Virus record (IMG/VR): IMGVR_UViG_3300029923_000015
Span: 14,732 to 78,731 of that record
DNA: 64,000 nucleotides
Source: a virus
Strand: one strand, 5' to 3'
In this document: positions 1-64,000 of the stretch, piece after piece
Layout of the letters: every line of letters starts with the position of its first letter
Position numbering within the stretch: position 1 is the first letter of the stretch
Translations under genes and position numbers: made by a program
The notes under the pieces: model-generated
Seen by the model: the letters and a program-made list of their open reading frames with translations, nothing else
Told to the model about the DNA's origin: nothing
Databases searched by the model: none

Positions 1-14
1 AAATTGGAATTAAG

Positions 15-2567
15 ATGAATAACACAACAACTATGTTTCCTGCGCAAAAAATAGCGCTCAAGAAAAAGAATAAAGAATGGGGCGAGGCTTGCGTAGACTA
101 TATTATTGGAATGGGCGAAATAGTTCCTTCTGGTTCCGATAGAACTAATTTCGAGGAGATGCAAACCTATTACGACTTATATAATAGTATCTTCAATGAA
201 AAAGATTTAAAATATGTAACAGACCCATTCAAACAGGATGATGGATTTCCAGCTAGCCCGCAAGACTTTAACATAATTAGATCTAAAATCGATTTGCTGT
301 TAGGCGAAGAAACAAAACATCCATTTAACTTTAGGGTCATTAGGACTAGCCAAGATGCTGCCTCTGACGTTCAAGAGAAGATGAAGAAGATGATGGTTGA
401 TTATATGATGGCAGAAGTTATGGCCGGAATGTCGGAAGACCAAGCAAAAGAGTTTCAAGATAAATTATCTACTGGAGAATTGATGCCACCAGAAAAAATA
501 GCATCATTTATAACAAAAGACTATAAGGATGTGGCAGAAAGTGCTGCGTATCATAGTCTAAATTATTTAAAAGAAAAACTTGGTTTAGATCATGAGTTCC
601 AGAAAGGATGGAAGGATGCATTAATAGCTGGAAAAGAAATATACTATACTGGAGTAATTAATGGCGAACCTAATATGGAGAGAGTGAACCCAATGTATTT
701 TGGACATGATCATTCACCAGACTTAGAGTTTATTGAAAATGGAGATTGGGCAGTTAGAAGGATGAGGATGTCTTATACTGAGATCTATGATAGATTGTAT
801 GATAAGATGGACGAAAAGCAATTAGACAAGCTCCTTGAAATGACAAATTCTAAACCAGGAGCTGCTGGATATGGTTCAGACAGGTCTAAAGTCGACTACA
901 TTCATTTAGATGTGAAAACAGTTACAGGTCCTGGAGACGATAATATAAACCAATCAAACCAATTAAATTTATGGCACGCTACATGGAAATCATATAAGAA
1001 AATTGGGTTTGTTACTATACTGGATGAAAATAATCAACCACAACAAATGATCGTTAGTGAGGATTACATGGTTATAGGAAATGAATTAAATATAGAATGG
1101 AAGTGGGTTATAGAGGTCTGGGAGGGATATAGATTCGGAGAAGATGGTTATGTTGGAGTTCAACCTTTAGAATATCAATTCGTATCTGCAGATAATTTAA
1201 ATTCACAAAAATTACCATACTCTGGAGTTATTTATAGTAATACAAACTCGAAGTCAAGGTCTCTCGTATCTATAATGAAGCCTCTCCAATATATGTACAT
1301 AATTATATGGTACAGGCTAGAATTAGCCTTATCAAGGGATAAAGGTAAAGTAATCACAATGGATATTACCCAAATCCCTAAATCCATGAATATTGATGCT
1401 GCTAAATGGATGCATTATCTATCAGCGGTTGGAGTTAACTTTGTTAATCCATATGAAGAAGGTTGGGATATACCAGGCAGAGAGGGCGGGAAGGCTGCTC
1501 AGTTTAATCAAATATCTGCACTCGATCTAACGATGTCTGATGTTATAAGCCAGTATATAAGTCTTATGGCAAAGATAGAAGACATGTTATCCGAGATATC
1601 TGGTGTTAGTAGGCAAAGACAGGGAGAGATTACATCAAGTGAATTGGTTGGGAATGTAAATCAGGCAGTTCAAAACTCTGCTAGTATAACTCAACCATTA
1701 TTTTGGATGCATAATCAATGCAAAAAAAACGCACTAAGGATGTTGCTAAATACAGCAAAAGAATGTTGGAGGGATTCTGCTAGACAGAATATTCAATACG
1801 TTATGAATGACTCTACTAGGGTATTTATGAAACTTGCTGATGATTTCTTTTATGAAGAAATGGATATATTTGTATCTGACTCTACAAAAGATTTACAGAA
1901 TCTAGAGGCGATAAAATCATTGTATCAGCCTGCGATGCAAAATGGAGCCAGTATATTGGATATCGCCGAGATAATGACGCTAGATAGTATTTCTGCAATT
2001 AAGACTAAGTTGGCACAGATAGAGAAGACTAGGTCCGATCAAGCGCAACAGACGGCAGACGCAGAAAATCAAAGACAAATGCAGTTGTCTCAGGTTCAGA
2101 ATGAAGTTAAACAACAAGAGGTCCTACTGAAACAACAAGAACTTGATTTGACTAAATATAAGACTGATTCTGATAATTCTACTAGAATAACAGTAGCAGA
2201 AATTGGTGCATATAAAGGAACGGCTGATATGGATGCAGATGCAAGTGGGACTCCAGATGTAATGGAAATAGCAGATATGGCATTAAAGCAAAGCCAACAT
2301 GATGCCGCTGTTTTTGACAAAGATATGGAAAGAAGTCAAAAAGAAAGAGAGTCTTCATTAAAGCATGACTTAGAAGGAAGAAAGATTGAAGCTGATAAAC
2401 AGGCCGCAAAATTAAGGGCAGATGCTGATAGAGATAAAATAAATCTTGAGAATCGAAAAATGGATGTCCAAAAACAATTACAAAAAATGAAAGATGATTC
2501 TGCTATGGAGCGCGAGAGATTAAAAGCTAAAACTGCGATTTCTAACAAGGTAACTGGTGAAAAATAA
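15..2567 (+). CDS. Portal protein (crAss-like)
   Basis: 850-aa ORF. The N-terminal FPAQK...WGEACVD segment and C-terminal coiled-coil tail resemble crAss-like portals, and it lies upstream of the MCP. Confidence 0.9.
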   Translation: MNNTTTMFPAQKIALKKKNKEWGEACVDYIIGMGEIVPSGSDRTNFEEMQTYYDLYNSIFNEKDLKYVTDPFKQDDGFPASPQDFNIIRSKIDLLLGEETKHPFNFRVIRTSQDAASDVQEKMKKMMVDYMMAEVMAGMSEDQAKEFQDKLSTGELMPPEKIASFITKDYKDVAESAAYHSLNYLKEKLGLDHEFQKGWKDALIAGKEIYYTGVINGEPNMERVNPMYFGHDHSPDLEFIENGDWAVRRMRMSYTEIYDRLYDKMDEKQLDKLLEMTNSKPGAAGYGSDRSKVDYIHLDVKTVTGPGDDNINQSNQLNLWHATWKSYKKIGFVTILDENNQPQQMIVSEDYMVIGNELNIEWKWVIEVWEGYRFGEDGYVGVQPLEYQFVSADNLNSQKLPYSGVIYSNTNSKSRSLVSIMKPLQYMYIIIWYRLELALSRDKGKVITMDITQIPKSMNIDAAKWMHYLSAVGVNFVNPYEEGWDIPGREGGKAAQFNQISALDLTMSDVISQYISLMAKIEDMLSEISGVSRQRQGEITSSELVGNVNQAVQNSASITQPLFWMHNQCKKNALRMLLNTAKECWRDSARQNIQYVMNDSTRVFMKLADDFFYEEMDIFVSDSTKDLQNLEAIKSLYQPAMQNGASILDIAEIMTLDSISAIKTKLAQIEKTRSDQAQQTADAENQRQMQLSQVQNEVKQQEVLLKQQELDLTKYKTDSDNSTRITVAEIGAYKGTADMDADASGTPDVMEIADMALKQSQHDAAVFDKDMERSQKERESSLKHDLEGRKIEADKQAAKLRADADRDKINLENRKMDVQKQLQKMKDDSAMERERLKAKTAISNKVTGEK

Positions 2568-3435
2568 TATGCCAAAGATAGTGACAAAAACAAACAAGTC
2601 ACTTATTTCTGATTGGAGGAAGAACTTCTCTAAACCTCCAACAGAATTGACTACGCCAGGTGTCGGTTTATTAGATACGCAACAACTACAATCGTCCACA
2701 ATGGTATCTACTCCAAATAGAATAAAGTCTGAGACTAATCGCGTTCCAATAGTGAAAGGAGATCCAACGCCAAAGTATATAAATATAAAGGATAATAGAA
2801 AAATTAGAGCAACCACTGGTCTTGCCATTGATCCTAATAGAGATCTCAAGACTGGATCTTATCCAACTACTCTTCCTGTTGATATAGCTGGCAGCGCAAA
2901 TACATTAAATAAAGATGCGTGGACAGTGATGGCTATAGGCCTTGCAGAAAATGACTTAGACAAAAAAGACTCTTTCTCCGGTCATATGACTTCACCACCA
3001 ACAGAAGGTGCAACATCTCCCGGAGATGATATGGTTAGGACGTTATCTAAAAAGATGCAACTCGCAAAAAGACTTGGCTATAAAGATGAACCCCACCAGA
3101 TACAGGCGTGGCAGGGATTAAGCCATAAGGGTCTAACTGCAAAGTCAGATCAAAAATACAATATAGAGACAGGGCAAGGCTCTAGTCAAGGGTCCTGGTT
3201 TGGGGTTCCAATCCCCTCTAGTGGGCATATAGATACTTTTGAGAACCCTTTGTATGGAAAAGAGATAATAGATCTTAGAGATAATGTATTAAAGCCGAAT
3301 AAAGACTTAAAGAATATAGTAGATACTACCGGCACAAAAGGTGGCGTTGTTATAAATAATGGAATAAAATATACTAACTCAAACTACGCCAGGAGACTTG
3401 CTGTCAATAAGTGGCTAGAGGGTAATAGAAAATAA
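2557..3435 (+). CDS. Hypothetical protein with possible lysozyme/transglycosylase-like fold
   Basis: 292-aa ORF overlapping the portal stop. Segments AIGLAEN and QAWQG...NPLYGKEIIDLR loosely recall SLT-like folds. Confidence 0.45.
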   Translation: MKNNMPKIVTKTNKSLISDWRKNFSKPPTELTTPGVGLLDTQQLQSSTMVSTPNRIKSETNRVPIVKGDPTPKYINIKDNRKIRATTGLAIDPNRDLKTGSYPTTLPVDIAGSANTLNKDAWTVMAIGLAENDLDKKDSFSGHMTSPPTEGATSPGDDMVRTLSKKMQLAKRLGYKDEPHQIQAWQGLSHKGLTAKSDQKYNIETGQGSSQGSWFGVPIPSSGHIDTFENPLYGKEIIDLRDNVLKPNKDLKNIVDTTGTKGGVVINNGIKYTNSNYARRLAVNKWLEGNRK

Positions 3436-3456
3436 TACAATTGAAAATAAACAATT

Positions 3457-4623
3457 ATGATAGATAAAAATAATGACGCTCTGGGAGGTTTTAGTGCAAT
3501 TTTCGACACACTATCTCCTAATGAAGACATACAAAGATTTAAAGGGTTTGAAGTTGTAGAAGATCCAGATGATCCTACGACAGACACTAAGGCAATTGAT
3601 GGAAAGGACGTACAAAGTCCATTTGACTTAGCGGATGAGGACGATTCCGTGGAAGTCCCAGGTAAACCAGATTTGAAAAAAACTACTCCTACTGTAGAGA
3701 AAGATGAAGTAAAGGAAATTATTCCTATTACTGATGATGAGCCTGAAAAAGAGGACGAAGTAGATGAGTCTGAATCTCAACAGGTGACTGCATTTTTTGA
3801 TGCAATAGCAGAACAAGTTGGATGGAATGATATTACTGATGATGAAAAGCCAAAGTCGGTAGAAGACTTCGTATCATATATGAAGTCAGCAGTAGAAGAA
3901 AGTAGCACGCCTCAATACGCTAACGATGAGGTCGCTTCTCTAGATCAGTATATAAAAACAGGTGGTACTATGTATGACTACTTTAATGGTACCACATCAG
4001 TTGATTATGATTCTGTTGACTTATCAAATGTAGAGTCTCAAAAAGCCCTAGTAAGTGAATTCCTTACTACAAAAGGGTTCAGTGATACCCAGATAAAAAG
4101 AAAATTAGAAAAATACCAAGATGCAGATCTTTTGGAAGATGAAGCTACTGACGCCATAGAATTTTTAAAAGAATCTAAAGAGCAAAACAGAAAAGCGCTA
4201 TTAGAAGAACAAAGAACTGCATACGACAATACGGTTAAGGAGCAACAAATTTTTTACAACAGCGTTGTTGATCAAATAGAAGCCCTTTCGGATGTTAGAG
4301 GAATAAAAATACCAAAAGAAGATAAGAAAGTTTTTAAGGAATATCTTTTAAAAATAGAATCTGATGGTAAAACCAAATATCAAAAAGACTATTCAAATCC
4401 TAATCGGATGATCAAGAATCTTATAGAATCTGCATACTTCACAATGAAAGGTGATGTATTGATAGAAAATGCTAAAAGATCTGGAGAAACGTCTGCTACA
4501 GAAAGACTGAAAAATACTTTGAAAACAAACAAAGTAAGTGGTTCGAAACAATCAATAAATAATGGGTCTCCAGCACCACTATGGTCTATAGCTTCGCAAC
4601 AACTATTACGAAGACCCCAATAA
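3457..4623 (+). CDS. Conserved crAss-like protein upstream of MCP (putative scaffold/structural protein)
   Basis: 388 aa with a very acidic low-complexity N-terminus and a helical C-terminus, in the conserved position immediately 5' of the MCP. Confidence 0.7.
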   Translation: MIDKNNDALGGFSAIFDTLSPNEDIQRFKGFEVVEDPDDPTTDTKAIDGKDVQSPFDLADEDDSVEVPGKPDLKKTTPTVEKDEVKEIIPITDDEPEKEDEVDESESQQVTAFFDAIAEQVGWNDITDDEKPKSVEDFVSYMKSAVEESSTPQYANDEVASLDQYIKTGGTMYDYFNGTTSVDYDSVDLSNVESQKALVSEFLTTKGFSDTQIKRKLEKYQDADLLEDEATDAIEFLKESKEQNRKALLEEQRTAYDNTVKEQQIFYNSVVDQIEALSDVRGIKIPKEDKKVFKEYLLKIESDGKTKYQKDYSNPNRMIKNLIESAYFTMKGDVLIENAKRSGETSATERLKNTLKTNKVSGSKQSINNGSPAPLWSIASQQLLRRPQ

Positions 4624-4647
4624 TAAACATAAAACTAAGTTTTAAAA

Positions 4648-6126
4648 ATGGATAATGGAATTTTAAACAACCTACAGCTTTACAAAGGAAAATGGTTTTC
4701 TGATCTTGTAGATGAAAATATGCTTTCTAATGCACTTCTGGTTAAACCTCACGAAGTATCTAGCGTAATTTCTTACGTATTTGGTGCTAAGGATGATGGT
4801 TATAGTTCTGCCTTAGATTTCTTAACAGGAGGTCTTGGAAAGACTATGGTAATTGACCAACGTGAATTTAGATGGTCTGTTATGATCGATTCTGATCGTG
4901 CAGTTACTATTCGTTCAGCTAAATGGAATGGTTCTACAGTAACCGATCCAACAACTCAGGCAGGTCTGGGTAATACTCCGATAATGCTATCTCTAGAAGA
5001 TAAGTGGTTCGGTCCAGGTGCTATACTTGAATTAGACGATAAGGAATTTCAATTACGTGTGTCGGGCGCTCCTTACCAAGATGGAAATGAATGGGTTTAT
5101 ACTTGCTTCATTGCAGATAGTCAGGCTACTTCGTTTGTACCGGGTAAATATTTACTTTCTGGATGTCAGGTATCTCGTTTAGGTTCCGCCTACGAAGAGT
5201 ACTCAGAAGAGGCAGATATCATCAATTACAATACTCATATTAAACTGCATAATCATTTGACTACGGTTCGTTTGTCTTACGATATTACAGGTACCGCTTA
5301 TAGTACTGTATTGGCTATCGCATTGAAAGACCCTAAGACTGGTAAAACTTCTTACTTGTGGTCGGATTTCCAGGAATGGAAAGCTGCCCGTGAATGGAAT
5401 AAACGTCAAGAACGTCAATTGGTATACTCTAAATATAATGCTAGTGCTGATGGTACTACTGAATTAATGGGTACTAATGGTCGTCCAGTATATATTGGTG
5501 CAGGTTTATTGCAACAGATAGCCCCGGCAAATCGTAGATATTATACAGAATTAAATGCCGATTTATTGGAAGATTTCTTATCTGACATGTCTTATAATAT
5601 GCTTGGAACTAATGAACGTAAATTCGTTGCCTTTACAGGCGAAATGGGTATGCGTGAATTTGACCGCGTATTAAAAGAAAAGGCAGGTACCTATAATCTT
5701 ATTGACAGTAAATTTGTTACTGGTTCTGGTCAAGAACTAACTTTAGGTGGTCAGTTCACTACTTATAAAATGACTAACGGTATTGAACTTACTGTTAAGC
5801 ATTTGCCAATGTATGATGATATCGTACATAATCGTAAGTTACATCCAATTACTGGGAAACCGGTTGAGTCTTATAGATTTACCTTCTTGGACTTTGGTAC
5901 AAGAGATGGAGAAGCTAATATCGTTAAGGTAGCTAGGAAAGACAGAGAGATGGTTATGTGGCATACTGCTGGTTCTGTAGCCCCTGGAGCTGGATATGGC
6001 AAATCAATCAACACCCTTCGTTCAAATGCAAAGGATGGTTATTCGGTAAACTTCTTAGGTGAAGTTGGTATCATGGTTAGAGATCCACGTGCTTGTGGTG
6101 AGTTGATCATGGACGTTATTGATTAA
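4648..6126 (+). CDS. Major capsid protein (crAss-like, HK97 fold)
   Basis: 492 aa. The MDNGILNNLQLYKGKWFSDL start and ...GIMVRDPRACGELI end resemble crAss-like MCPs. Frequent CGT/GGT codons fit a highly expressed gene. Confidence 0.93.
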   Translation: MDNGILNNLQLYKGKWFSDLVDENMLSNALLVKPHEVSSVISYVFGAKDDGYSSALDFLTGGLGKTMVIDQREFRWSVMIDSDRAVTIRSAKWNGSTVTDPTTQAGLGNTPIMLSLEDKWFGPGAILELDDKEFQLRVSGAPYQDGNEWVYTCFIADSQATSFVPGKYLLSGCQVSRLGSAYEEYSEEADIINYNTHIKLHNHLTTVRLSYDITGTAYSTVLAIALKDPKTGKTSYLWSDFQEWKAAREWNKRQERQLVYSKYNASADGTTELMGTNGRPVYIGAGLLQQIAPANRRYYTELNADLLEDFLSDMSYNMLGTNERKFVAFTGEMGMREFDRVLKEKAGTYNLIDSKFVTGSGQELTLGGQFTTYKMTNGIELTVKHLPMYDDIVHNRKLHPITGKPVESYRFTFLDFGTRDGEANIVKVARKDREMVMWHTAGSVAPGAGYGKSINTLRSNAKDGYSVNFLGEVGIMVRDPRACGELIMDVID

Positions 6127-6135
6127 TAAAAATTA

Positions 6136-6165
6136 AGTATAGGTAAATTGGTTTTTACCTATACT
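6136..6165 (+). terminator. 12-bp hairpin downstream of MCP
   Basis: AGTATAGGTAAA (6136-6147) / TTTACCTATACT (6154-6165). The U-tract is weak, so it may be a stabiliser or processing hairpin instead. Confidence 0.5.
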
Positions 6166-6316
6166 ACATTAATTAGATTAGTTTGATTCATAATAAAATC
6201 AAAACTATCGAAATGGAAGTAAAAATATTTTGAATTGCGATTGCATTCATAGGTTATAGCTAATCTACAATGTGTGATTAGTTATTTTTAGTATTAACTT
6301 TTAAATCTTTAGAATT

Positions 6317-7090
6317 ATGGCACTTACTTTAGATGGTACAACGACTTTACCTGCAATGGGTGGAAGTGGTCTAGGCTCGGGCGTTGGTCTCGGGGCAGTT
6401 GGCGGTGGTATTGCTGGGTTAATCCTTGGTGGATTAATAGGCAATAACGGAAATGGATTATTTGGTGGCGGGTCTAGTACCGCTAATGTAGCAGAATTTG
6501 GAGCAATAAATAACCAACTGCAAACATTACAATCTCAGATCGGCGCAAATGATTTAAGGAATGAATTGGAAAGTATGGAGAACACATACGCTACAATATC
6601 ATCCGGACAGACTGCTGCTAATGCAGCTGGATTCGCGTCAATCGGGAGTCAAATAGGAAACGTTGCAACGGCACAAGCAACTAATAACTTTACTACACTT
6701 ACATCTATCAATGATTTAGGCCGTGATATTACTGCTCAATCGAATCAAAATGCTTTACAGCAATTGAATTCTTTTAATCAGCAAAATACCACAATGCTGC
6801 AAGGATTTAACTCATCCGCAATGCAGGTTCAAAATGCAACTAATCAAATAATTGCTCAAGGAACTGCAAATGCAATGGCAATGGCTAATTGTTGCTGCGA
6901 AATAAAGAGTACTATCCTATCAGACGGAAATGCAACTCGCGCATTGATAAATGATCTTAATGTTCAAAACTTAAGAGATCAATTAACTGCTGCTAATAAT
7001 AAGATCAGTAATAACGATCAGAATCAATATTTGTTAAGTTCCATCTTGACACATATTCACCCAACAGTTACTGGGACTACTATTGTCTAA
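6317..7090 (+). CDS. Hypothetical Gly-rich / Asn-Gln-rich coiled-coil protein with NCCCE motif
   Basis: 257 aa: hydrophobic Gly-rich N-terminus, N/Q-rich helical body, then NCCCE...ATRALI...QNLRDQL. Confidence 0.75.
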   Translation: MALTLDGTTTLPAMGGSGLGSGVGLGAVGGGIAGLILGGLIGNNGNGLFGGGSSTANVAEFGAINNQLQTLQSQIGANDLRNELESMENTYATISSGQTAANAAGFASIGSQIGNVATAQATNNFTTLTSINDLGRDITAQSNQNALQQLNSFNQQNTTMLQGFNSSAMQVQNATNQIIAQGTANAMAMANCCCEIKSTILSDGNATRALINDLNVQNLRDQLTAANNKISNNDQNQYLLSSILTHIHPTVTGTTIV

Positions 7091-7104
7091 TAAAAAACAC
7101 CAAC

Positions 7105-7118
7105 GGGGCTTCGGCCCC
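7105..7118 (+). other. GC-rich UUCG tetraloop hairpin
   Basis: GGGGC-TTCG-GCCCC in the intergenic gap of an AT-rich genome. Confidence 0.6.
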
Positions 7119-7139
7119 TTAGGTTAAAACTAAAGAGAT

Positions 7140-7436
7140 ATGGCAAGTCCAATAACAGTAGGCACTACAGCAATTGTAGTCGCTTTAGCTAATTTGTCTA
7201 GGGCTGATATTCGATTTCAGAATACAAGTCTAACACAGACAATTTATTTGAAAAGGGTCCCTAGTACTGGGTTATTTACTCCAGTATCTACAACTGATTA
7301 TGATGTAAGAATGCTTCCAGATTCAGCAACTGGTGAAGGCGGAGAGCCATTTGAAACTAACTCAGTTTCTGCTTTCCAAGCAATTTCATCGGCAGCAGCA
7401 GGAACATTGGCAATTTATGAAACGGTTAAAGTTTAA
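7140..7436 (+). CDS. Hypothetical small beta-rich protein
   Basis: 98-aa ORF with an A-rich upstream context. Confidence 0.65.
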   Translation: MASPITVGTTAIVVALANLSRADIRFQNTSLTQTIYLKRVPSTGLFTPVSTTDYDVRMLPDSATGEGGEPFETNSVSAFQAISSAAAGTLAIYETVKV

Positions 7437-7440
7437 GATC

Positions 7441-7617
7441 ATGGAAGAAAATTATTTTAAAATAAGTTTCGATAAAGTCATGGAAATGATTTTAATCGAA
7501 GAAAGACAAAAGATACATAAGTTTATCTTAGATACATTAGGGAAGGCTACTGCAGATATATTCGAAACATACAAAGCGACTCCTTCCGAAACTCTTAAGT
7601 TATTTGTAACAGTTTAA
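7441..7617 (+). CDS. Hypothetical protein (58 aa; likely start 7441 rather than 7333)
   Basis: The ATG at 7441 lies 4 nt after the previous stop. The longer ORF call overlaps the upstream gene. Confidence 0.55.
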   Translation: MEENYFKISFDKVMEMILIEERQKIHKFILDTLGKATADIFETYKATPSETLKLFVTV

Positions 7618-7628
7618 CCTAAGCTAAG

Positions 7629-7880
7629 ATGGAAGATAATATTACTGTACAAGATACAGCCGTAGACACAAAGAAAGTCTATCCAATGGTAGAAGAGATG
7701 ACGTTCAGATCTCCTGTAAAGAGTGAAGAAGAAGCATATAGACTATTAATGGCAATACAAACTTTAGTCAATGAAGTAGGATCAATTGAGATTATCTCAC
7801 TATTCGATTATTTTGTAAAAAATCCATCAGCAATAGCAAAGGCTAAAAAGTACTTACCTTACTTAAAAATGTTAGGATGA
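7629..7880 (+). CDS. Hypothetical protein
   Basis: 83-aa ORF whose stop overlaps the next start (ATGA). Confidence 0.6.
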   Translation: MEDNITVQDTAVDTKKVYPMVEEMTFRSPVKSEEEAYRLLMAIQTLVNEVGSIEIISLFDYFVKNPSAIAKAKKYLPYLKMLG

Positions 7881-8341
7881 GCAAATTTATGAATTTAATA
7901 GAAAAAGCAGCTCCGATTGTTATTCAGTCTAAGCCAATGATAGAAATTATTAATATAGTTAATGAGCATCTAGATGATATGTGCTTATTGCATCCTAATC
8001 AATATGATGATCTTATTAATGAAATATATATGGTAGCAAATGGACCTTATTTCGATCTTGATATAGCCAATAAGGCTGTAGCTGCTATGCATAATGAAGA
8101 TGGCACTATGGGCCAGAAACTTAGTCTAAATGATACTAATCAAATAGCATCATCAATGAGTATTTATTTTGATAAATTTAATCAATACGATTGGTACTAT
8201 ACCGTAAACATGATATATTCTGATTACAGCGTAGTCTTATCAAATAACTCTTCATTATTAAATGAAATGGCAAAAGCCTTTTTAATGGATAAGGACGCCC
8301 CAGCAGGGAAGGCCTATCTGTACTATAAGGCAATGTGCTAA
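7877..8341 (+). CDS. Hypothetical helical protein (WYYxxNMxYSDY...AKAFLxDKDA family)
   Basis: 154 aa. The C-terminal DWYYTVNMIYSDY...AKAFLMDKDAPAGKAYLYY motif is one I recall from uncharacterised gut-phage proteins. Confidence 0.7.
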   Translation: MSKFMNLIEKAAPIVIQSKPMIEIINIVNEHLDDMCLLHPNQYDDLINEIYMVANGPYFDLDIANKAVAAMHNEDGTMGQKLSLNDTNQIASSMSIYFDKFNQYDWYYTVNMIYSDYSVVLSNNSSLLNEMAKAFLMDKDAPAGKAYLYYKAMC

Positions 8342-8346
8342 AATAC

Positions 8347-8378
8347 TTATGTGGGGCGATTGATTTTACCCCACATAA
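8347..8378 (+). terminator. Hairpin closing the post-MCP cassette
   Basis: TTATGTGGGG (8347-8356) / CCCCACATAA (8369-8378). Confidence 0.5.
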
Positions 8379-8421
8379 CAATTAAATAAATATAAAAATT
8401 ACTATACTTAAGTAAACTTAA

Positions 8422-9174
8422 ATGGAAGTATTATTGAAACATAAGCGCAAAGACGCTTGGGCCCAAGTAATAAAATATAAATCATGCTTTGATTATATTG
8501 CGCCTGCATTAACAAGATCGGGAAATAGACACACTGGATTAACAGAAGAAGACGCCCTTAGACTTGAAAAGGAATTAAATTTAGGACCAAATACTTTAGC
8601 CCCTTATAGCAAGTATTGGGTTACGTTTATTATAAAAATAACTAATAAAGAGCTTGCTCTAGACACTAGTAGACCCTGGGATGAATTGCAATATCTATTT
8701 TTAAAGAATCATCACAGAGTTGCAATTGGATTAAACGATTTAAAACCAGGAGCAGACTATGTATTAATAAACAAAGATTCTGAGGCTCAAGAGTCTAATA
8801 GGATCAATAAGAGAAAGCGCGATGCTATTAAAGAATTTGACAAACTATCGCTAGAAGACATGAGAAAGTGTTTGCGACTATTTGGATATAAAGCAGATAC
8901 TATGTCGGCTGAACTCGTAGAAAGCAAATTATTTGAACAAGTGGAAGGAAGCCCAGAGAGATTCTTTTCTAAATGGGTTGATAATAAATCAAAAAATACT
9001 GAATTCCTAATTGAGGCTGCAATAGCAAAAAATATTTTACGAAAAAATAAAAATGCTTATTTGTACGGAACGGATGTTATAGGGACTTCATTATCTGATG
9101 CAGTATCTTATTTAGATAATAAGATGAACCAAGATCTGAAGATGACTATAAAAAATGAATTAGAAAGTAAATAA
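8422..9174 (+). CDS. Conserved crAss-like capsid-module protein
   Basis: 250 aa with motifs TGLTEEDALRLEKEL and LIEAAIAKNILRK...YGTDVIG, as in the crAss gene usually adjacent to the MCP. Confidence 0.7.
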   Translation: MEVLLKHKRKDAWAQVIKYKSCFDYIAPALTRSGNRHTGLTEEDALRLEKELNLGPNTLAPYSKYWVTFIIKITNKELALDTSRPWDELQYLFLKNHHRVAIGLNDLKPGADYVLINKDSEAQESNRINKRKRDAIKEFDKLSLEDMRKCLRLFGYKADTMSAELVESKLFEQVEGSPERFFSKWVDNKSKNTEFLIEAAIAKNILRKNKNAYLYGTDVIGTSLSDAVSYLDNKMNQDLKMTIKNELESK

Positions 9175-44409: not shown

Positions 44410-47400
44410 TGAAACATTGTATAAATATTCGCTTGAAAGAGTTTCAGGCACTTACAGAACAAACTAATATGCATCCAATGGTACTTGCTGCCAAGATGGG
44501 TGTATATATGGAAAAGAATAATACTACTGAATGGCCTACATTAGAGCAAATAGAATCTATAATTTTATCTGAAAAATCATTTGACGAACAATTATCTCAA
44601 TATGAAAAAGATTATGAATTATATCAGACAAAATTAAGATTTGACGAAAAGCCTACACACCCAATGTCCGAAGAAGAGGCTGATAGTGAGTTTAATGAGT
44701 TTAGTATTATATTTCCAGAGTCGGCGTTATCTATAGTTCCATTCGAAACACTTAAAACCATAAATGGAGAAACTGCGTATAGAATAGATATTAATTTAGA
44801 TAAGCCAATAAAACCAGTTAAAAGTAAAATAGAGTTATCTAAAGAAGAAGAATTAACTGCTGATCAGATATCTGAAAATGCATTAAAAGAACAAGAGGAA
44901 AAAGATTCCCAATTAAGTATAAACTTACAAAAGAAGAATCAAATATTTGATATGTATGAAGGTACTTCTAAGGCTGAGTCTGCATTAGGAGAAGACAAAC
45001 CAGGTACATTTACTAAAGATGAAACTGAATTAGACAAAAGAACTGAGAAAGAGTTAAAGAAATTAAAAAAGGTCCAACGTAGAACTCAAGCAGTTTTACA
45101 TATGTTAGCTACTAATATAGGTAAAAGAACTGGTGTTAGTTTTAAAGTAGTTACAGATTCTGAGATGCAAGAGATATTTCCATGGTTTCAGTCTGGAGAT
45201 CTTGGAGCATATGATGATACTAGTAATACCGCATATATAGTAAGTAATAATGCAGATGAAACTACTGTTGTTCACGAATTATTTAGTCACCCATTTCTAG
45301 ATTATATAAAATCAGTACTATCCTTAAAGTCTATATATGAAAATCTGCTTTTTGAAGCAAAGGCTACAGAAGGATTAGAAGAAAATGTACGTGAGACATA
45401 TAAATCTGAGAATATTGATGAAGATGCAATGAACGATGAGATCGTTGCAAGAGCTTTAGATATGGCAGTTCAGGGCATTTTGAATGAAGAACGACATAAA
45501 ACACTTATAGATGCCATTAAAGCCTATTTTAAGGCGTTTACAGACACTATTAAGGAGGCTCTGGGCATTCGTTCCGGTCTAGTGTTTACTATCAATGAGA
45601 AGACTACAATTAGCGAATTAGCTAAGTGGGCTTTAAATGGCGAAGGACAAATGAGGGTACTTGGAGACCTAAATGAAAGAGAAAGTATAGTTGAGTCATT
45701 AGATATTATATTTACTGACAAAGGCGAATCTAAATTTGATGAATTATATAAAGGAATGACTATAGATCAGTTTATAGATAGTTTTGATGTTAATTCTAAA
45801 GATTCTGAATTGCTTAAAAATTGGATGTACGAACATAATCCAGCTAATATAGACGATTTAGTTAGGGGGGTATTGTCTGATTTAAATAGAGAGGAGGTAT
45901 TAATAGATAAAAAAGGTTTTGTCTCATTACAAAAGAAAATATTTTGGAAACCAGGAGATATGACTGAAAATGCTATTAAAGCAAAAGAGTTTTATGTCCA
46001 TGGATTAAAATCTAGAGCCGCAATATTAAAGAAAAGTAAGGCTTTAACTAGATCGCAAAGAGATGAATTCGATAAAGTAATTAATGAAATAGAAAATTCG
46101 GACGAAGTGGTTGCGGCAATGAAATTTGTTGAATACGCAATGCAAGAAGGATTGTCTACTGAGAAGGAGTTGAAAGAAATGACAACGAAAATGAAAGTTG
46201 GAGATGATATTGATGCAAATAGATTAATTTCTATTTATAATGACTTTCTTAAAATGTTTGATCAGTCGATTAAGAATATTTCAGTAATAAATAATAACGA
46301 AGATAGTATAATAAATAAATATGCTAGCAAAACTAAACTTAAGGAGTTTAAAGAAAACTTAAATTCAGTAAAGGAAGCATTTCAAAATTTAGATGAATTA
46401 TTTCAGCCATTATTTGAATATAAATACAGGAATAAGCTACAGGAAATAGCAGCTACTGCAGGATCTCCTACTATGGATATGGTAGTTGAGGATTTGTATA
46501 ATTCAGAAAGAGATGTTACCTGGATGTCTACATTTGTAGGGAGCCCATCTATGTCTAGAGTTGAGCAAATCAGAGCGTTAGATTTTTTACTTACTAACAT
46601 AAATAATCAAGTAAGACATGATGTGAGTAATTCTGGATGGATATCTAAATTATCTATATTATCTAAAAAGATGGCTGGTACTAATCCATATGTTAGTTTT
46701 ATGAGTTTTTACGAGCATCACGAAGGTAAAGCTACTGGATTTTTACTGTCTAAACTTAAATATGGCGTCTTCTTAAAGGATTATAATAAATTTATGGACG
46801 AACTCGCTGAAGAGTTTGACCTTAATAATACATATGAATCACCACTAGATCCAGTAGAGTATAAAAAGTTTATAGAGAAAAAGGATAAGTTTTTAGAAGA
46901 ACATGCCGAGAGGATGTTTACTCCAGAATATTATAATTTAAAACACTCATTGTCTCCTATGACTAGTGAAGTTTTAGATGATTCAAATAAGTCGATTCGC
47001 GCCATAACTGATAAATATATAAATGAGTTTGGAGTTCCAGATGCATTTAATATGACGTTAGAGGATAGTGAGAGATTATTTACACTAAGGAAAGAAAAAG
47101 AATTTCTTTCGTCTGATAAATACCAAGGAACTGGACTCCCTAAATTTGGAAGAGATCTGGAGATAGCAAATGAATTAAAATCATATAATGAGAATATGAA
47201 GGGTAAATTAGATTATCACACTAATAAAACCAAATTTAATCAAGCTAAATCTATTATGAAATCTACATTGGCTCCAGAAGAGTATATGAGATGGGTGCAA
47301 GCAAATACTAAAGTAGAATATGAGCAGTCATTTTGGGACGATTTAGCTTCTTTAGAAAAAGAAAATCAAACTCCACAATGGCAAGCTTTATATGATCAAA

Positions 47401-50018
47401 AACAAGCTATATTAAAATCATTCAGAGACACTAATACAATGGAGATTAGAGTTAACCGAATGGAAGCATCTAGAATTGGCCTAAAATCAGTAAAAGAATG
47501 GATTGATAGTGCTGATTCCATGTTAAGCAAATATAAAAATCAATCTAAAAACAAAAATGCTAGACAGTTTGGTAGTATCGCTGACATGGTGAAGACTAAG
47601 GCGTATCTTGCTGAAAATGCAAAATATACTGAAATGGCATTAGGAAATTCTATCGAGCAAAAAATATCTGAAGAATGGTTTGCAGAAAATCATACTGTTA
47701 GAAGTGATGGTGTTTCATTAGTACCTAAAGGATATTGGATGAAAATAGAACCTAAAGATAAATCTTTAATAAAAAGAGACGTCCCTAATGCTTCTTGGTC
47801 TGAGCTAGATGAGAATTCTATCTTCTATAACAACAAGTATGAAAAAGATATGTCTGATTACGGGTTGCAACCTAACAAAATATTATACGATAACTCTTCT
47901 GAATTCAATAAAATGATGAGTTCTTCAGATAAGGCAGAATTCTATAATACTATTATTGAAATGAGGAAAGAAGCTGATTCTATGCTTGATTTTATAGAGA
48001 GGCCAAATCCATTACTTATGCCACAGATATCTGGTAATAGCGTTCGTAGAATGTTTTCTGAGAATAATTTACTAAAAGGTATATGGAATGAAATAAAAGA
48101 CATATTTGCAGTTAGATCAGATGAGTCTGAATATGGTGGAGATGTAGATAAATTATTTAGGCCAGATAGCTCTATAGTAAAAAATATCCCTGTATTTTAT
48201 AGGAAGATGCTTGATAACCCATCTGCTATTTCAAAAGATATGATACATATATATACTTTGTATTATACTATGGCTGCTAATTATAAGAGACAGAATGAAA
48301 ATCATGCTGATGTACAAGTATTATTAGAAGGCCTGAATAGGACTTCCGCCTCAAATAAAACATTGTTTAATAAGATTGGTGGAGCAATAAAAAATAAAGG
48401 TTTAGATAGATCTGATTTAGAGACTACTAAAGCTGGCGAAACTAATATAATTAAACGAGCTAGAGGAATGGTTGATAGGTCTATGTACGGTATAAACTCA
48501 AATAGAATGACGGCCTCCTTGAACTTCGCTGACTGGAGGCGGAGTATAGGAATATTTAAAGTTTTATTACCAAATTCAAATATTAAGATAGATATAGCTA
48601 AACCTTTTAAAAGTATGCTATCTTGGTTTAGAATGATAAACCTTGCATACAATCCACTAGCTATTGTAGCTAATTATGCTACTGCAGAGATAAATATGAA
48701 GATTGAAGCCGAGATTGGATTAAATATGAATGAAAAGGACTTGTGGAATGCAAATATAGAACTAATTAAAATTTTACCTGAAGCATTGATGAGTCTTACT
48801 AGAAGAAGATTTAATAATAAAGTGGTTGCCTTGACTAGATTGTATGGAGTTGCTGGGTCAGAAGCGGAATCTACTAAAGATACATATGGATTACAATTAG
48901 CCCAATTTACAGGAGAACATATAATGTATGGTCCATATACAGCAGGTGACTTCTTAGTTAAATCTAGAATGCTTATAGCAGTATTAAAAGGGTATAAATT
49001 AGATGGAGATACATATGTAAATAGGAATGAATTTATTACTAAATTTATGTCTACAACTCCAGGATCTAACAGAAAGGATGCTATTGAATTTTTTAATGCA
49101 TTACCAACTAATCTATATGACTCATTTATAATTGATAAGAAAAGTGGTCAATTATCAGTAGACCCAAAATACAAAGCGTTTGTTACTCAAGAAGTAATGA
49201 ATAAGTCTAATATGGTTGCAGAAAGATTAGCTGCTAAATTAGATGGTGTTCTCGTATCTTCAGATAGAAATGCTATTAATACAAATGCCATTGCTAGTGC
49301 ATTAATGATGCATAGAGGATGGATGGTTGGTGCTATTCAGGATAGATTTGGTGGCAGGATGTTTAATTATACTAAAGGTATGATGGATGAGGGTCAATAT
49401 CGTACTTTAGCGACTTCTAAGGCAGGTTATCAAGCATTGTTGAACATTCTTACCTTTAACATAATTAAGCCTCTTAGAGAGTCTCTAAATACGTCTGAGA
49501 GCTATAAGGTATATAATATTAAAAGGACTTTAAATGAAGTAAAATATATGGTAATTACCGCAATACTTACTTCGCTATTAAAACCTGATCAGCCTGATAA
49601 AGACAAGGAGAAACCATCTACACAAGAAATGTTATATATAGCCGCAATGAGGGTTCTATACGAACAGAATGCAGTATTTTCTCCGGCAGATGCATTAGGA
49701 ATTTTAAAATCACCTACAGCCGCACAAAATCAATGGGATGTAATGTTCAATATCACAGATGGATTGATGTCTGGGACTTTAGGCACTGAGATACAGAGAG
49801 GAAAATATAAAGGCAAAACTAAAGGAGAGCAGTATGTTACTAAATTGATACCCGGGTACAAGAATATCTATGAAAACTTTCTGCATCCAGATTTACAGGC
49901 TAAGGAATTATACATGAGAAAGAATATTGGATTGATCTTTAGAGCATTAGGTCCAACAGACCCAAATGTTATCAAAAAAAGAAATGCTAGAAAAAAATCA
50001 TCAACAAGGCCACAATAA
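44409..50018 (+). CDS. Large cargo / polyvalent protein
   Basis: 1869 aa, mostly helical, with an HELFSH zincin-like motif at 45273-45290. It is the last gene of the late module. Confidence 0.7.
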   Translation: MKHCINIRLKEFQALTEQTNMHPMVLAAKMGVYMEKNNTTEWPTLEQIESIILSEKSFDEQLSQYEKDYELYQTKLRFDEKPTHPMSEEEADSEFNEFSIIFPESALSIVPFETLKTINGETAYRIDINLDKPIKPVKSKIELSKEEELTADQISENALKEQEEKDSQLSINLQKKNQIFDMYEGTSKAESALGEDKPGTFTKDETELDKRTEKELKKLKKVQRRTQAVLHMLATNIGKRTGVSFKVVTDSEMQEIFPWFQSGDLGAYDDTSNTAYIVSNNADETTVVHELFSHPFLDYIKSVLSLKSIYENLLFEAKATEGLEENVRETYKSENIDEDAMNDEIVARALDMAVQGILNEERHKTLIDAIKAYFKAFTDTIKEALGIRSGLVFTINEKTTISELAKWALNGEGQMRVLGDLNERESIVESLDIIFTDKGESKFDELYKGMTIDQFIDSFDVNSKDSELLKNWMYEHNPANIDDLVRGVLSDLNREEVLIDKKGFVSLQKKIFWKPGDMTENAIKAKEFYVHGLKSRAAILKKSKALTRSQRDEFDKVINEIENSDEVVAAMKFVEYAMQEGLSTEKELKEMTTKMKVGDDIDANRLISIYNDFLKMFDQSIKNISVINNNEDSIINKYASKTKLKEFKENLNSVKEAFQNLDELFQPLFEYKYRNKLQEIAATAGSPTMDMVVEDLYNSERDVTWMSTFVGSPSMSRVEQIRALDFLLTNINNQVRHDVSNSGWISKLSILSKKMAGTNPYVSFMSFYEHHEGKATGFLLSKLKYGVFLKDYNKFMDELAEEFDLNNTYESPLDPVEYKKFIEKKDKFLEEHAERMFTPEYYNLKHSLSPMTSEVLDDSNKSIRAITDKYINEFGVPDAFNMTLEDSERLFTLRKEKEFLSSDKYQGTGLPKFGRDLEIANELKSYNENMKGKLDYHTNKTKFNQAKSIMKSTLAPEEYMRWVQANTKVEYEQSFWDDLASLEKENQTPQWQALYDQKQAILKSFRDTNTMEIRVNRMEASRIGLKSVKEWIDSADSMLSKYKNQSKNKNARQFGSIADMVKTKAYLAENAKYTEMALGNSIEQKISEEWFAENHTVRSDGVSLVPKGYWMKIEPKDKSLIKRDVPNASWSELDENSIFYNNKYEKDMSDYGLQPNKILYDNSSEFNKMMSSSDKAEFYNTIIEMRKEADSMLDFIERPNPLLMPQISGNSVRRMFSENNLLKGIWNEIKDIFAVRSDESEYGGDVDKLFRPDSSIVKNIPVFYRKMLDNPSAISKDMIHIYTLYYTMAANYKRQNENHADVQVLLEGLNRTSASNKTLFNKIGGAIKNKGLDRSDLETTKAGETNIIKRARGMVDRSMYGINSNRMTASLNFADWRRSIGIFKVLLPNSNIKIDIAKPFKSMLSWFRMINLAYNPLAIVANYATAEINMKIEAEIGLNMNEKDLWNANIELIKILPEALMSLTRRRFNNKVVALTRLYGVAGSEAESTKDTYGLQLAQFTGEHIMYGPYTAGDFLVKSRMLIAVLKGYKLDGDTYVNRNEFITKFMSTTPGSNRKDAIEFFNALPTNLYDSFIIDKKSGQLSVDPKYKAFVTQEVMNKSNMVAERLAAKLDGVLVSSDRNAINTNAIASALMMHRGWMVGAIQDRFGGRMFNYTKGMMDEGQYRTLATSKAGYQALLNILTFNIIKPLRESLNTSESYKVYNIKRTLNEVKYMVITAILTSLLKPDQPDKDKEKPSTQEMLYIAAMRVLYEQNAVFSPADALGILKSPTAAQNQWDVMFNITDGLMSGTLGTEIQRGKYKGKTKGEQYVTKLIPGYKNIYENFLHPDLQAKELYMRKNIGLIFRALGPTDPNVIKKRNARKKSSTRPQ

Positions 50019-61979: not shown

Positions 61980-62447
61980 TTAGTCCTCTTCTTCTTCGTA
62001 CAACGGAATAGCTGCGGTATTTGCCTTGTTAGCGGCAATTAGACAGTTAATCTGTTCTTCGATATCATCGCGAATAATTGTCAAGCGATTAATCTCGCTT
62101 TCATTTTCAGCGTTGCAAATTGAGATTGCCTCCTTATAGGAAGGGAAATATGTGTCGGGCTCTTTTTCGAGATCGAATTTACCGGCGTCTTCTGCGAATT
62201 TGTAATTACCAGGGAATAAGACTTTGTTGTCTCCTCCGTTCACTACGTAAATTTCCGATCCACCAGGTCCGTGTGTCAATTTCACTTCGTTTACTACGAG
62301 TGCTTTTGGCATGCAGATAAGTGCAAGTTTTTCGATACGTAATTCTTTTTCTTTTGACTTGTGATTTACATCAACTGGTTTTGATGCTATTTTGAAAATT
62401 TCTGCGCCAGCAAAAAGCCGCTGACCTACTTTATTCTTTGTCTTCAT
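61980..62447 (-). CDS. Hypothetical protein
   Basis: 155-aa ORF with GGAGGTCAAA upstream of the ATG. Confidence 0.7.
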   Translation of the reverse strand: MKTKNKVGQRLFAGAEIFKIASKPVDVNHKSKEKELRIEKLALICMPKALVVNEVKLTHGPGGSEIYVVNGGDNKVLFPGNYKFAEDAGKFDLEKEPDTYFPSYKEAISICNAENESEINRLTIIRDDIEEQINCLIAANKANTAAIPLYEEEED

Positions 62448-62449
62448 TT

Positions 62450-64000
62450 TGACCTCCGTTTTTAATTGATTTAATTACTGTGTTTTGAAAATATTTTGCG
62501 TCTTACTGAGAGTTTAATCTGTTCCGACTAGAAAATTTGATGTAAAATGTAAAGAAATTTAATAATGATTGGTTACACTCCAATCCTAAATCCATTGCTC
62601 TCCTACTCGCAGGGCATGTAATCCTTATATCACTATATACTTTCTGTATCTGTCAGTCGCTAGACGATTTATTTACTATAAACCTCATAAGTAGTCTCTT
62701 ATGATCAATCTTATTACCTCAGCATTATCTGCCACTGCTCTAAGACGCTCCATTCCATTGTATATATGTATGCCCTAGTTTCATCGTTTTCTCGGGCTGG
62801 TTTTGAATAAAAGCGGTATTTGAATAATGGGCTTCTCCATCTATTCCAGTTATATTTACACAACAAGCCTATGGATGTTTATGTCACGATCTACCCTTGA
62901 GATTAGCCTCTTGAGTATAGTAAATACAATAGCCGATAATATTTGATAATTTAAAAAAACTATTCTTTAGCATTAAGAATAGAGAAGAACGTATGTAGAA
63001 AGATTTCGTAACGAACCTTGTATCAATTCCTATGGCAAATGAAGCCATGGTGTTCTGAAGTTCCATATTGTGTCAAGTCTTGAAACTTGAGTTACTATTG
63101 ATATAATTTGCAATGTTTTGTTTAAATCCTATTTAGTGACTACTTTATATATGTACATAAGCACGGGGCAAATAATCATATTCTTAATTATTTACTTTGT
63201 TTACAGTTTGGACCTGCGTGTTCTGTACCTTTCTCCATTAAAGGACTGATTCCAACTATGGGCGCCAGGTTTCTAAACTTCAGACTCTTGTATTGAAATG
63301 ACTTTCTTATCGTCTTGTACCGAATGATTGTTCATTTCCCTATTCTATTGGTTTTAAAGTGTTTGACCTTCCACTTGGTTTTGCATATCGAGCTCCTTTG
63401 CGCCCCTATTATTACTATTCATAAGACATATGATAGCAATAAGTATACCGGGTTCTAGCCGTATTGACATATGCTGTAAAAGCTTACTACTCTTTTACTG
63501 GTGATATAAACTTTGCCCATATATCATGGGTTTGAAGTTTTCCTGTCTGGCAGGTCGTACTCCTAACTAGCCATTCTTTTAGTTTTTCGCATGATTTGTT
63601 CTATAGCTTAATCTACTGCCCGAATCTCGCCGGGATGAAACTATATAGCGAGTTTCCAACTTCGGCTTTCGCCTTTCTGTTCGTTATCACACTTACAACG
63701 TGTGTTTCCTATCTACTAGTATAGGCGCAGACCACTTTCGATTAACCTTGAAAGCAACAACTAGGTTGGTTTTTATATTGTTTCATTCATTTTAAAACCA
63801 GTAATATAATGAGATGTTCGCTATCTAGGTCCATGGGCCTTTGGTTTTTTAATTGCCAAAAAGATAACTTCAACTATTGGATTTCCACCCCGCGCATTAC
63901 TAGCCGGTTTATGTATTCTATTAATAGTTGTTTTTGCATTTTCTCCTTTAATCTTCCATCTCTCATGGGCTGATCGCCATTATTATAGCGCGGGGAGTTA
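62450..64000. ncRNA. Candidate large structured non-coding RNA region (runs off the window end)
   Basis: No credible ORF in 1.55 kb. It has many hairpins and long-range 7-8 bp perfect helices, including crossing (pseudoknot) pairs. Confidence 0.55.

Follow-up and report, generated by a model that had tools for sequence, protein, structure and literature searches.

What is carried by the longest gene-free run in a phage genome, and does the fold first drawn at one edge of it exist as an RNA domain in its own right? The window analysed here is a stretch of 64,000 nt, positions 14732-78731 of a 78.7-kb IMG/VR virus contig which is ~80% complete, and the end of the window is also the end of the contig. 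The run free of open reading frames (ORFs), at 62448-64000, is the longest such gap in the genome. It is closed to ORFs under translation table 11, with TAG read as Q, with TGA read as W and under every one- or two-stop code. The start codon of a 60-aa ORF at 62884-63066 is lost in the relative L002, as seen in a four-sequence alignment. ARAGORN found no tRNA or tmRNA. At the edge of the run, the initial annotation had placed an autonomous, multi-helix and pseudoknotted RNA domain of 331 bases (62450-62780), described as an ncRNA of unknown class upstream of a minus-strand operon. Its statement that this part is ORF-free is borne out by the ORF list and by the stop-reassignment translations.

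The first gene past the run on the minus strand (61980-62447, from the ORF list) encodes a protein of 155 aa from no known family; it has no Pfam or PHROG match and the Atlas returns viral hypothetical proteins only. It is followed on the same strand by a replication module containing a DnaB-type helicase, Sak4 and a primase, all identified by Pfam/PHROG. The helicase is 70% identical to that of cr118_1 and ~59% identical to those of Birpovirus and its allies, and it assigns the phage to the Crassvirales, as a Suoliviridae-like member. A set of 80 relative loci was fetched via the helicase, and in nearly all of those reaching far enough an ORF-free gap of 1.4-2.2 kb is present in the same place. 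The locus sits between a sigma-factor gene block, as seen in the relatives, and the helicase/primase operon. In the relatives a homologue of the 155-aa gene always succeeds the RNA and has its own conserved start region, while the gene upstream of the RNA has a stop codon and a hairpin at its end.

Several other features of these loci were recorded. In both of the sequence groups described below, an ECF-type sigma factor (Sigma70_r2 and r4) is encoded upstream of the RNA, with a few small genes in between, at L014:1958-2554 and as gp76 of NC_055898; the contig of the window ends short of that position. Ahead of the first operon gene, 62448-62470 (minus strand) and the equivalent part of the relatives contain a conserved TAATCAAT box, an A-run and, in most cases, a GGAGG Shine-Dalgarno-like sequence, the last of which is unusual before the 155-aa gene if the hosts are Bacteroidota. 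Several relatives (L015:2979-4236, L016:10001-11258) have a helicase gene with an interruption of ~260-355 nt, and in MT774379 (cr118_1) it is given as two CDS pieces 355 nt apart. This interruption could be an intron or another insertion.

The extent of the locus is given by L002, in which the complete interval between the flanking genes spans 1234-3219 (1,986 nt). The window holds the 3′ 1.55 kb of this structured-RNA locus of ~2.0 kb (62448-64000, minus strand), and with the contig stopping at 64000 it lacks ~630 nt of the 5′ part. Breaks within the RNA locus are found in at least five contigs of the phage group, namely that of the window (64000), L009, L004, L054 and L062, and may reflect high local microdiversity that defeats assembly. 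The non-coding DNA of the window has 78% identity to L002 (over 62800-63975) and L003, 74% to L008/L009 and 71% to L005, with only short islands of similarity in more distant phages. In the comparison with L002, the RNA region is 78% and the adjacent early genes are 78.8% identical; the RNA stretch is conserved to the same degree as its neighbouring genes.

The gaps of the relatives split into two sequence groups. Besides the window, group A has about a dozen distinct phages as members, and group B is made up of human-gut sequences. In both groups, a sigma-factor gene lies a few genes upstream and the helicase lies downstream. A pattern scan for group A returned 13 IMG/VR and 9 JGI contigs.

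The most conserved part of the locus within the window is a multi-branch domain closed by two helices, D1 (63118-63291, minus strand), which was defined in an alignment of 10 phages. Its structure was drawn from the five closest sequences, and the five distant ones serve as an independent test. Across the 10 phages 80.4% of the cells are paired, against 28-41% when the partners are slid by 1-3 columns. Changes on both sides are seen in 29 of the 48 pairs, a level reached in 0 of 500 shuffles. The covariance model of D1, termed R1, scores 174.5 bits (E 3e-32) at 63118-63291 on the minus strand, and matches 12 distinct phages, including L029 and L095 from outside its seed. Membership of the R1 family is defined by a full-length match in an ORF-free interval upstream of the 155-aa gene and the helicase operon, and this is what the window contains.

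Adjacent to D1 is a closed three-way domain with a UUCAAG-type loop hairpin, D2 (63008-63095, minus strand). The structure of D2 was derived from the 4 closest phages and scored on the alignment of 10, where 89.2% of cells are paired (26-40% when slid) and 15 of 26 pairs are changed on both sides, again reached in 0 of 500 shuffles. Folding is also better than that of shuffled sequence in this core, with z-scores of -1.72 for 62990-63292 and -2.89 for 63293-63800. Many further hairpins show compensatory changes in the four-sequence alignment. In a small hairpin at 62898-62911 (minus strand), the central pair is AU, CG, GC and UA in the four phages of the folded alignment. A 9-bp hairpin at 62822-62846 (minus strand) is nearly invariant in the four closest phages, and more distant relatives also contain its GGAG..GCCC block. 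Two conserved tetraloop hairpins lie closer to the end of the contig, both on the minus strand. The first, with a GAAA loop (63663-63674), was found by a motif scan of group A and in the four-sequence alignment, and has a second copy in the 5′ domain of the relatives. The second, with a GGAA or GAAA loop (63879-63890), is shared by the window, L002, L020, L019 and L012.

The strand which folds is indicated by the wobble pairs. The closing helix of D1 contains invariant G-U pairs, and G-U cells number 51 compared with 22 for A-C; by both the folded strand is the minus strand, which is the direction of the operon. A plus-strand sigma-70-like promoter at 63080-63107 (11/12 match) was rejected, as its -10 element is deleted in L008 and altered in L002 and the G-U asymmetry favours the other strand.

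The same asymmetry bears on the possibility that the interval functions as DNA, for instance as a replication origin or a packaging site, with its hairpins formed in single-stranded DNA. Such an element would be well placed beside the replication genes, and the breaks of several contigs inside the locus would also be in keeping with it. However, the conserved G-U pairs and the excess of G-U over A-C are strand-specific, as for RNA. The multi-branch domains, the GNRA loops and the pseudoknot are likewise features that characterise RNA. Neither the repeated binding sites nor the AT-rich unwinding element of a replication origin occurs in the interval. There are no iterons or repeat families, only short two-copy repeats of the kind produced by chance, and no AT-rich unwinding block, the GC content of the RNA region being flat at 0.31-0.39, as elsewhere. 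A DNA-level element is considered very improbable.

Known RNA classes were searched with Rfam 15, including GOLLD, ROOL, OLE, group I/II introns, RNase P, tmRNA and 6S, and there were 0 matches in the window at the gathering score. Below this threshold (E up to 10) only chance-level hits were returned, the best with an E of 0.083, and the full-length loci of L002, L019, L012 and L028 gave unrelated tRNAs or nothing. This agrees with the "unknown class" of the initial annotation. A self-splicing group I/II intron was rejected on the basis of no intron model match, no RVT_1 in the genome and flanking genes with intact ends. A reverse-transcriptase-associated ncRNA was likewise discarded, there being no RT in the genome, and the paper on UG27 has no bearing here. 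The locus is non-coding and conserved, its helices covary, it is folded from the minus strand and it lies outside all known families. The claim of a folded ncRNA of no catalogued class upstream of the minus-strand operon therefore holds for the larger ~2-kb locus, the core of which is outside the flagged interval, and fails for 62450-62780 as a self-contained domain.

The 5′ part of the locus is outside the window and was seen in the relatives. It contains an H-type pseudoknot (L002:1475-1520), in which the loop GGAC pairs with a downstream GUCC and an A-rich linker separates the strands. Compensatory variants of this pairing are GGGC/GCCC in L005 and L019, and GAGC/GCUC in L026. A UCC-UUAAAU-GGA(GAAA) hairpin motif is found in both D1 (63230-63250, minus strand) and the 5′ domain (L002:1545-1565). 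A GGC-GAAA-GCC hairpin occurs twice, and R1 has a weak second match of 18 bits on the 5′ domain (L002:1498-1619). The motifs repeated between D1 and the 5′ domain may have arisen by internal duplication, or may be a binding site present more than once. For the 5′ domain, modelling by covariance was dropped, as the RNAalifold consensus was too poor to add to the sequence motifs.

The flagged stretch differs from this core. It is the least conserved part of the locus, and nhmmer tiles over 62450-62840 reach only the three nearest lineages. The letters of all six complementary pairs of the drawn fold are present. These are an outer 8-bp helix (GCGTCTTA at 62498-62505 with TAAGACGC at 62741-62748), two further nested helices (CTGAG 62506-62510 with CTCAG 62718-62722, and CGACT 62525-62529 with AGTCG 62655-62659), two local hairpins (GATTGG 62567-62572 with CCAATC 62580-62585, and TCATAAG 62685-62691 with CTTATGA 62698-62704) and a pseudoknot (AGGGCAT 62611-62617 with ATGCCCT 62770-62776). 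The density of such complementarity had been taken as a sign of a folded ncRNA, but it does not exceed what chance would give. Perfect complementary 6-, 7- and 8-mers number 16, 5 and 1, against 18.9, 4.95 and 1.25 expected from 500 dinucleotide-preserving shuffles of the 331 nt. The minimum free energy of the 331 nt is no better than that of shuffles, the z-score being -0.40 for the plus strand and -0.15 for the minus strand.

Much of the drawn fold involves a lineage-specific insertion of ~95-110 nt at 62684-62790 (minus strand), which is absent from L002, L008 and L005. The insertion occurs once in the genome, which rules it out as a repeat or mobile element. It holds one arm each of the outer 8-bp helix, the CTGAG/CTCAG helix and the pseudoknot, as well as the entire TCATAAG hairpin. 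When counted on the alignment with L002, L008 and L005, three of the drawn helices are represented by letters from the window alone. In the nearest relatives the pseudoknot is either gapped or unpaired, and the CGACT/AGTCG helix is broken at 2 of 5 pairs. In the same alignment, RNAalifold pairs the ATGCCC segment locally instead. The tail at 62450-62800 can be aligned in the three nearest relatives only, and this rejection of the drawn helices is based on four sequences.

Covariation had been proposed as a check on the drawn helices. It supports GATTGG/CCAATC, and the other five of the six are without comparative support. An autonomous domain at 62450-62780 could draw on the six pairs being real, on the one hairpin that covaries and on a minus-strand centroid fold which includes the outer 8-bp helix. 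Set against these are the chance-level k-mers and folding energies, the three helices lost from the relatives together with the insertion, the two further pairings broken in them and the local pairing of ATGCCC. There is hardly any likelihood that the domain exists as drawn. The drawn long-range helices and pseudoknot would be chance complementarity, mostly involving the insertion of ~100 nt, and the pseudoknotted fold should not be carried forward.

Two blocks in the leader of the first operon gene (62475-62528, minus strand), at 62510-62528 and 62475-62491, are invariant in the four closest phages, and neither has a second copy in the window. They take in the 5′ arms of the drawn outer helices, the claimed partners of which are absent or broken in the relatives, and the blocks appear to be kept for some reason other than these helices. 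An ECF-type promoter (GGAAC...TAAGAC) within 62510-62528 was considered and dropped, as the motif is absent from more distant members.

Within the flagged stretch, only two hairpins appear from the alignments to be under structural selection. The first is the GATTGG/CCAATC hairpin (62567-62585, minus strand), the sole drawn helix with comparative support, which has an invariant 7-nt loop, AGUGUAA. In L002 and L008 the stem becomes GAAGAG/CTCTTC, with 3 of its 6 pairs changed on both sides and all cells paired. It does not qualify as an intrinsic terminator; it was not reported by the scan for minus-strand terminators, and the U-rich run begins ~8 nt past a 6-bp AT-rich stem. The second, which was absent from the initial list of helices, is a family-wide hairpin at 62668-62682 (minus strand), whose stem is 5 bp long and whose (C/A)GUAA loop is invariant. 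A single such hairpin is present at the corresponding position of 12 phages; eight different stems are seen among these, and U-G pairs occur in three of them. The search for it demanded pairing, and the evidence is accordingly the constant loop and position combined with varying stems, not the percentage of paired cells. Loops ending in GUAA are present in three conserved minus-strand hairpins: 63688-63704 (GUUGUAA), 62567-62585 (AGUGUAA) and 62668-62682 (xGUAA). This recurrent loop motif is perhaps a docking or protein-binding signal.

Taken as a whole, the flagged 331 bases are probably the fast-evolving 3′ tail of a structured non-coding RNA locus of ~2 kb, joined to the leader of the replication operon, and the RNA itself probably acts in trans. 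It would consist of a string of independently closed domains: the 5′ pseudoknot domain of the relatives, the GNRA-capped hairpins, D1, D2 and a looser tail. The tail hairpins may mark the 3′ end of the RNA or its separation from the operon mRNA. The Bacteroidota -7 motif TAnnTTTG is conserved nowhere in the interval. Since the interval lacks both a terminator-like site on the minus strand and any conserved promoter motif of the Bacteroidota type, the leftward transcription unit probably includes the RNA, which may be synthesised early or in the middle of infection.

An alternative is that the whole 2 kb is a cis-acting 5′ leader of the replication operon, with a role in antitermination, translational control or mRNA stability. 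The minus strand yielded neither a promoter nor a canonical terminator, so that a discrete RNA is indistinguishable from a very long leader. The strand is shared with the operon, no terminator-like site intervenes before the 155-aa gene, no Bacteroidota-type promoter motif is conserved internally and the homologous first gene is never separated from the RNA. Known leaders measure tens to a few hundred bases. Here, by contrast, closed and covarying domains extend over ~2 kb, at a long distance from the start codon, and the portion closest to the gene is the least conserved. It has also been reported that the comparable RNAs of phage phi14:2 persist while other early transcripts fall (bioRxiv 10.1101/2020.03.07.982082). 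A cis-acting leader is considered unlikely.

A further possibility is that the locus is not one giant RNA but a tandem string of several independent small RNAs. Separate closing helices are present in D1, in D2 and in the 5′ domain. The relatives differ from one another by insertions and deletions of whole blocks, and D1 is absent from L026 and L018 although their 5′ domain is present. Against this, block order and spacing are kept across the clade, and the interval is not punctuated by promoter or terminator signals. The chance that the RNAs are separate is put a little lower still than that of a leader.

The preferred reading, a trans-acting RNA of ~2 kb, can be extended to the human-gut relatives with less assurance. 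The gap of human-gut Suoliviridae (for example that of cr115_1, a Birpovirus, at 47392-49596 of NC_055898) is similar to that of the window in length (~2.0-2.3 kb), in being ORF-free and in strand. It also occupies the same slot, in the order sigma-factor gene, a few small genes, the ~2-kb gap, small genes and helicase. Between the gaps of group A and those of the human gut, no similarity was detected by blastn clustering, nhmmer tiles, motif scans or R1 with filters off, and the flanking small proteins are too diverged for BLASTP to confirm orthology. The two gaps are putative orthologues by position. Some human-gut relatives have a second ORF-free gap of ~2.1 kb, located ~8 kb downstream of the helicase (L066:18003-20134, L067:17876-20004, L073:18128-20256, L075:18147-20278). 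These second gaps cluster among themselves and not with the first gap.

The broadest proposal is that one discrete RNA of ~2 kb, larger than GOLLD or ROOL, has been retained in this slot, in forms that have diverged, throughout the Suoliviridae-type crAss-like phages and acts early in trans, for example as a scaffold, an anti-defence decoy or an organiser of replication or transcription. This proposal is tentative, its chances being judged slightly below even.

CrAss-like phages dominate many gut viromes, and those of the Suoliviridae type are among the commonest gut viruses. To our knowledge, almost nothing has been established about their early biology. The RNA takes up 2% of a tightly packed genome and is conserved like the neighbouring protein genes, so it must pay its way. 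D1, D2 and the R1 model provide a concrete target for structure determination and for metatranscriptome mapping.

The closest comparison is with phi14:2, a crAss-like phage of Cellulophaga. Two long intergenic regions lie among its early genes; their transcripts run in the gene direction, exceed those of most genes, are seen from the first time point onward and persist (Drobysheva et al., bioRxiv 10.1101/2020.03.07.982082). In the genome record these regions correspond to a stretch of ~1.7 kb with no remaining CDS annotation, the annotations of small ORFs having been withdrawn. The window has the same arrangement, a long ORF-free interval among the early genes of a Crassvirales genome and on the gene strand, and the RNAs are comparable in size. 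Unlike the present phage, phi14:2 belongs to the Steigviridae and has a marine host. Its RNAs are known by transcription, with no structure or family defined, whereas the present RNA is known from sequence and covariation alone. R1, which covers D1 only, has no match in positions 1-9000 of the phi14:2 genome (NC_021806), and the likeness is therefore one of analogy and not of membership. By this analogy, the most likely function of the present RNA would be that of a stable protein-binding scaffold or decoy acting in trans, like the phi14:2 long non-coding RNAs.

In the literature, no large RNA was found for the Suoliviridae or Crassvirales besides the phi14:2 report. Among catalogued families, GOLLD (RF01998) and ROOL (RF03087) are similar: both are very large multi-domain structured RNAs carried by phages and prophages, and both contain GNRA loops and pseudoknots. 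The present locus differs in being two to three times longer and in having no match to either model at E values up to 10. The comparative structure described here lends support to the unexplained long non-coding RNAs of phi14:2. The locus represents a previously undescribed family of very large phage RNAs, broadly akin to the phi14:2 lncRNAs and to the ornate RNAs of other phages.
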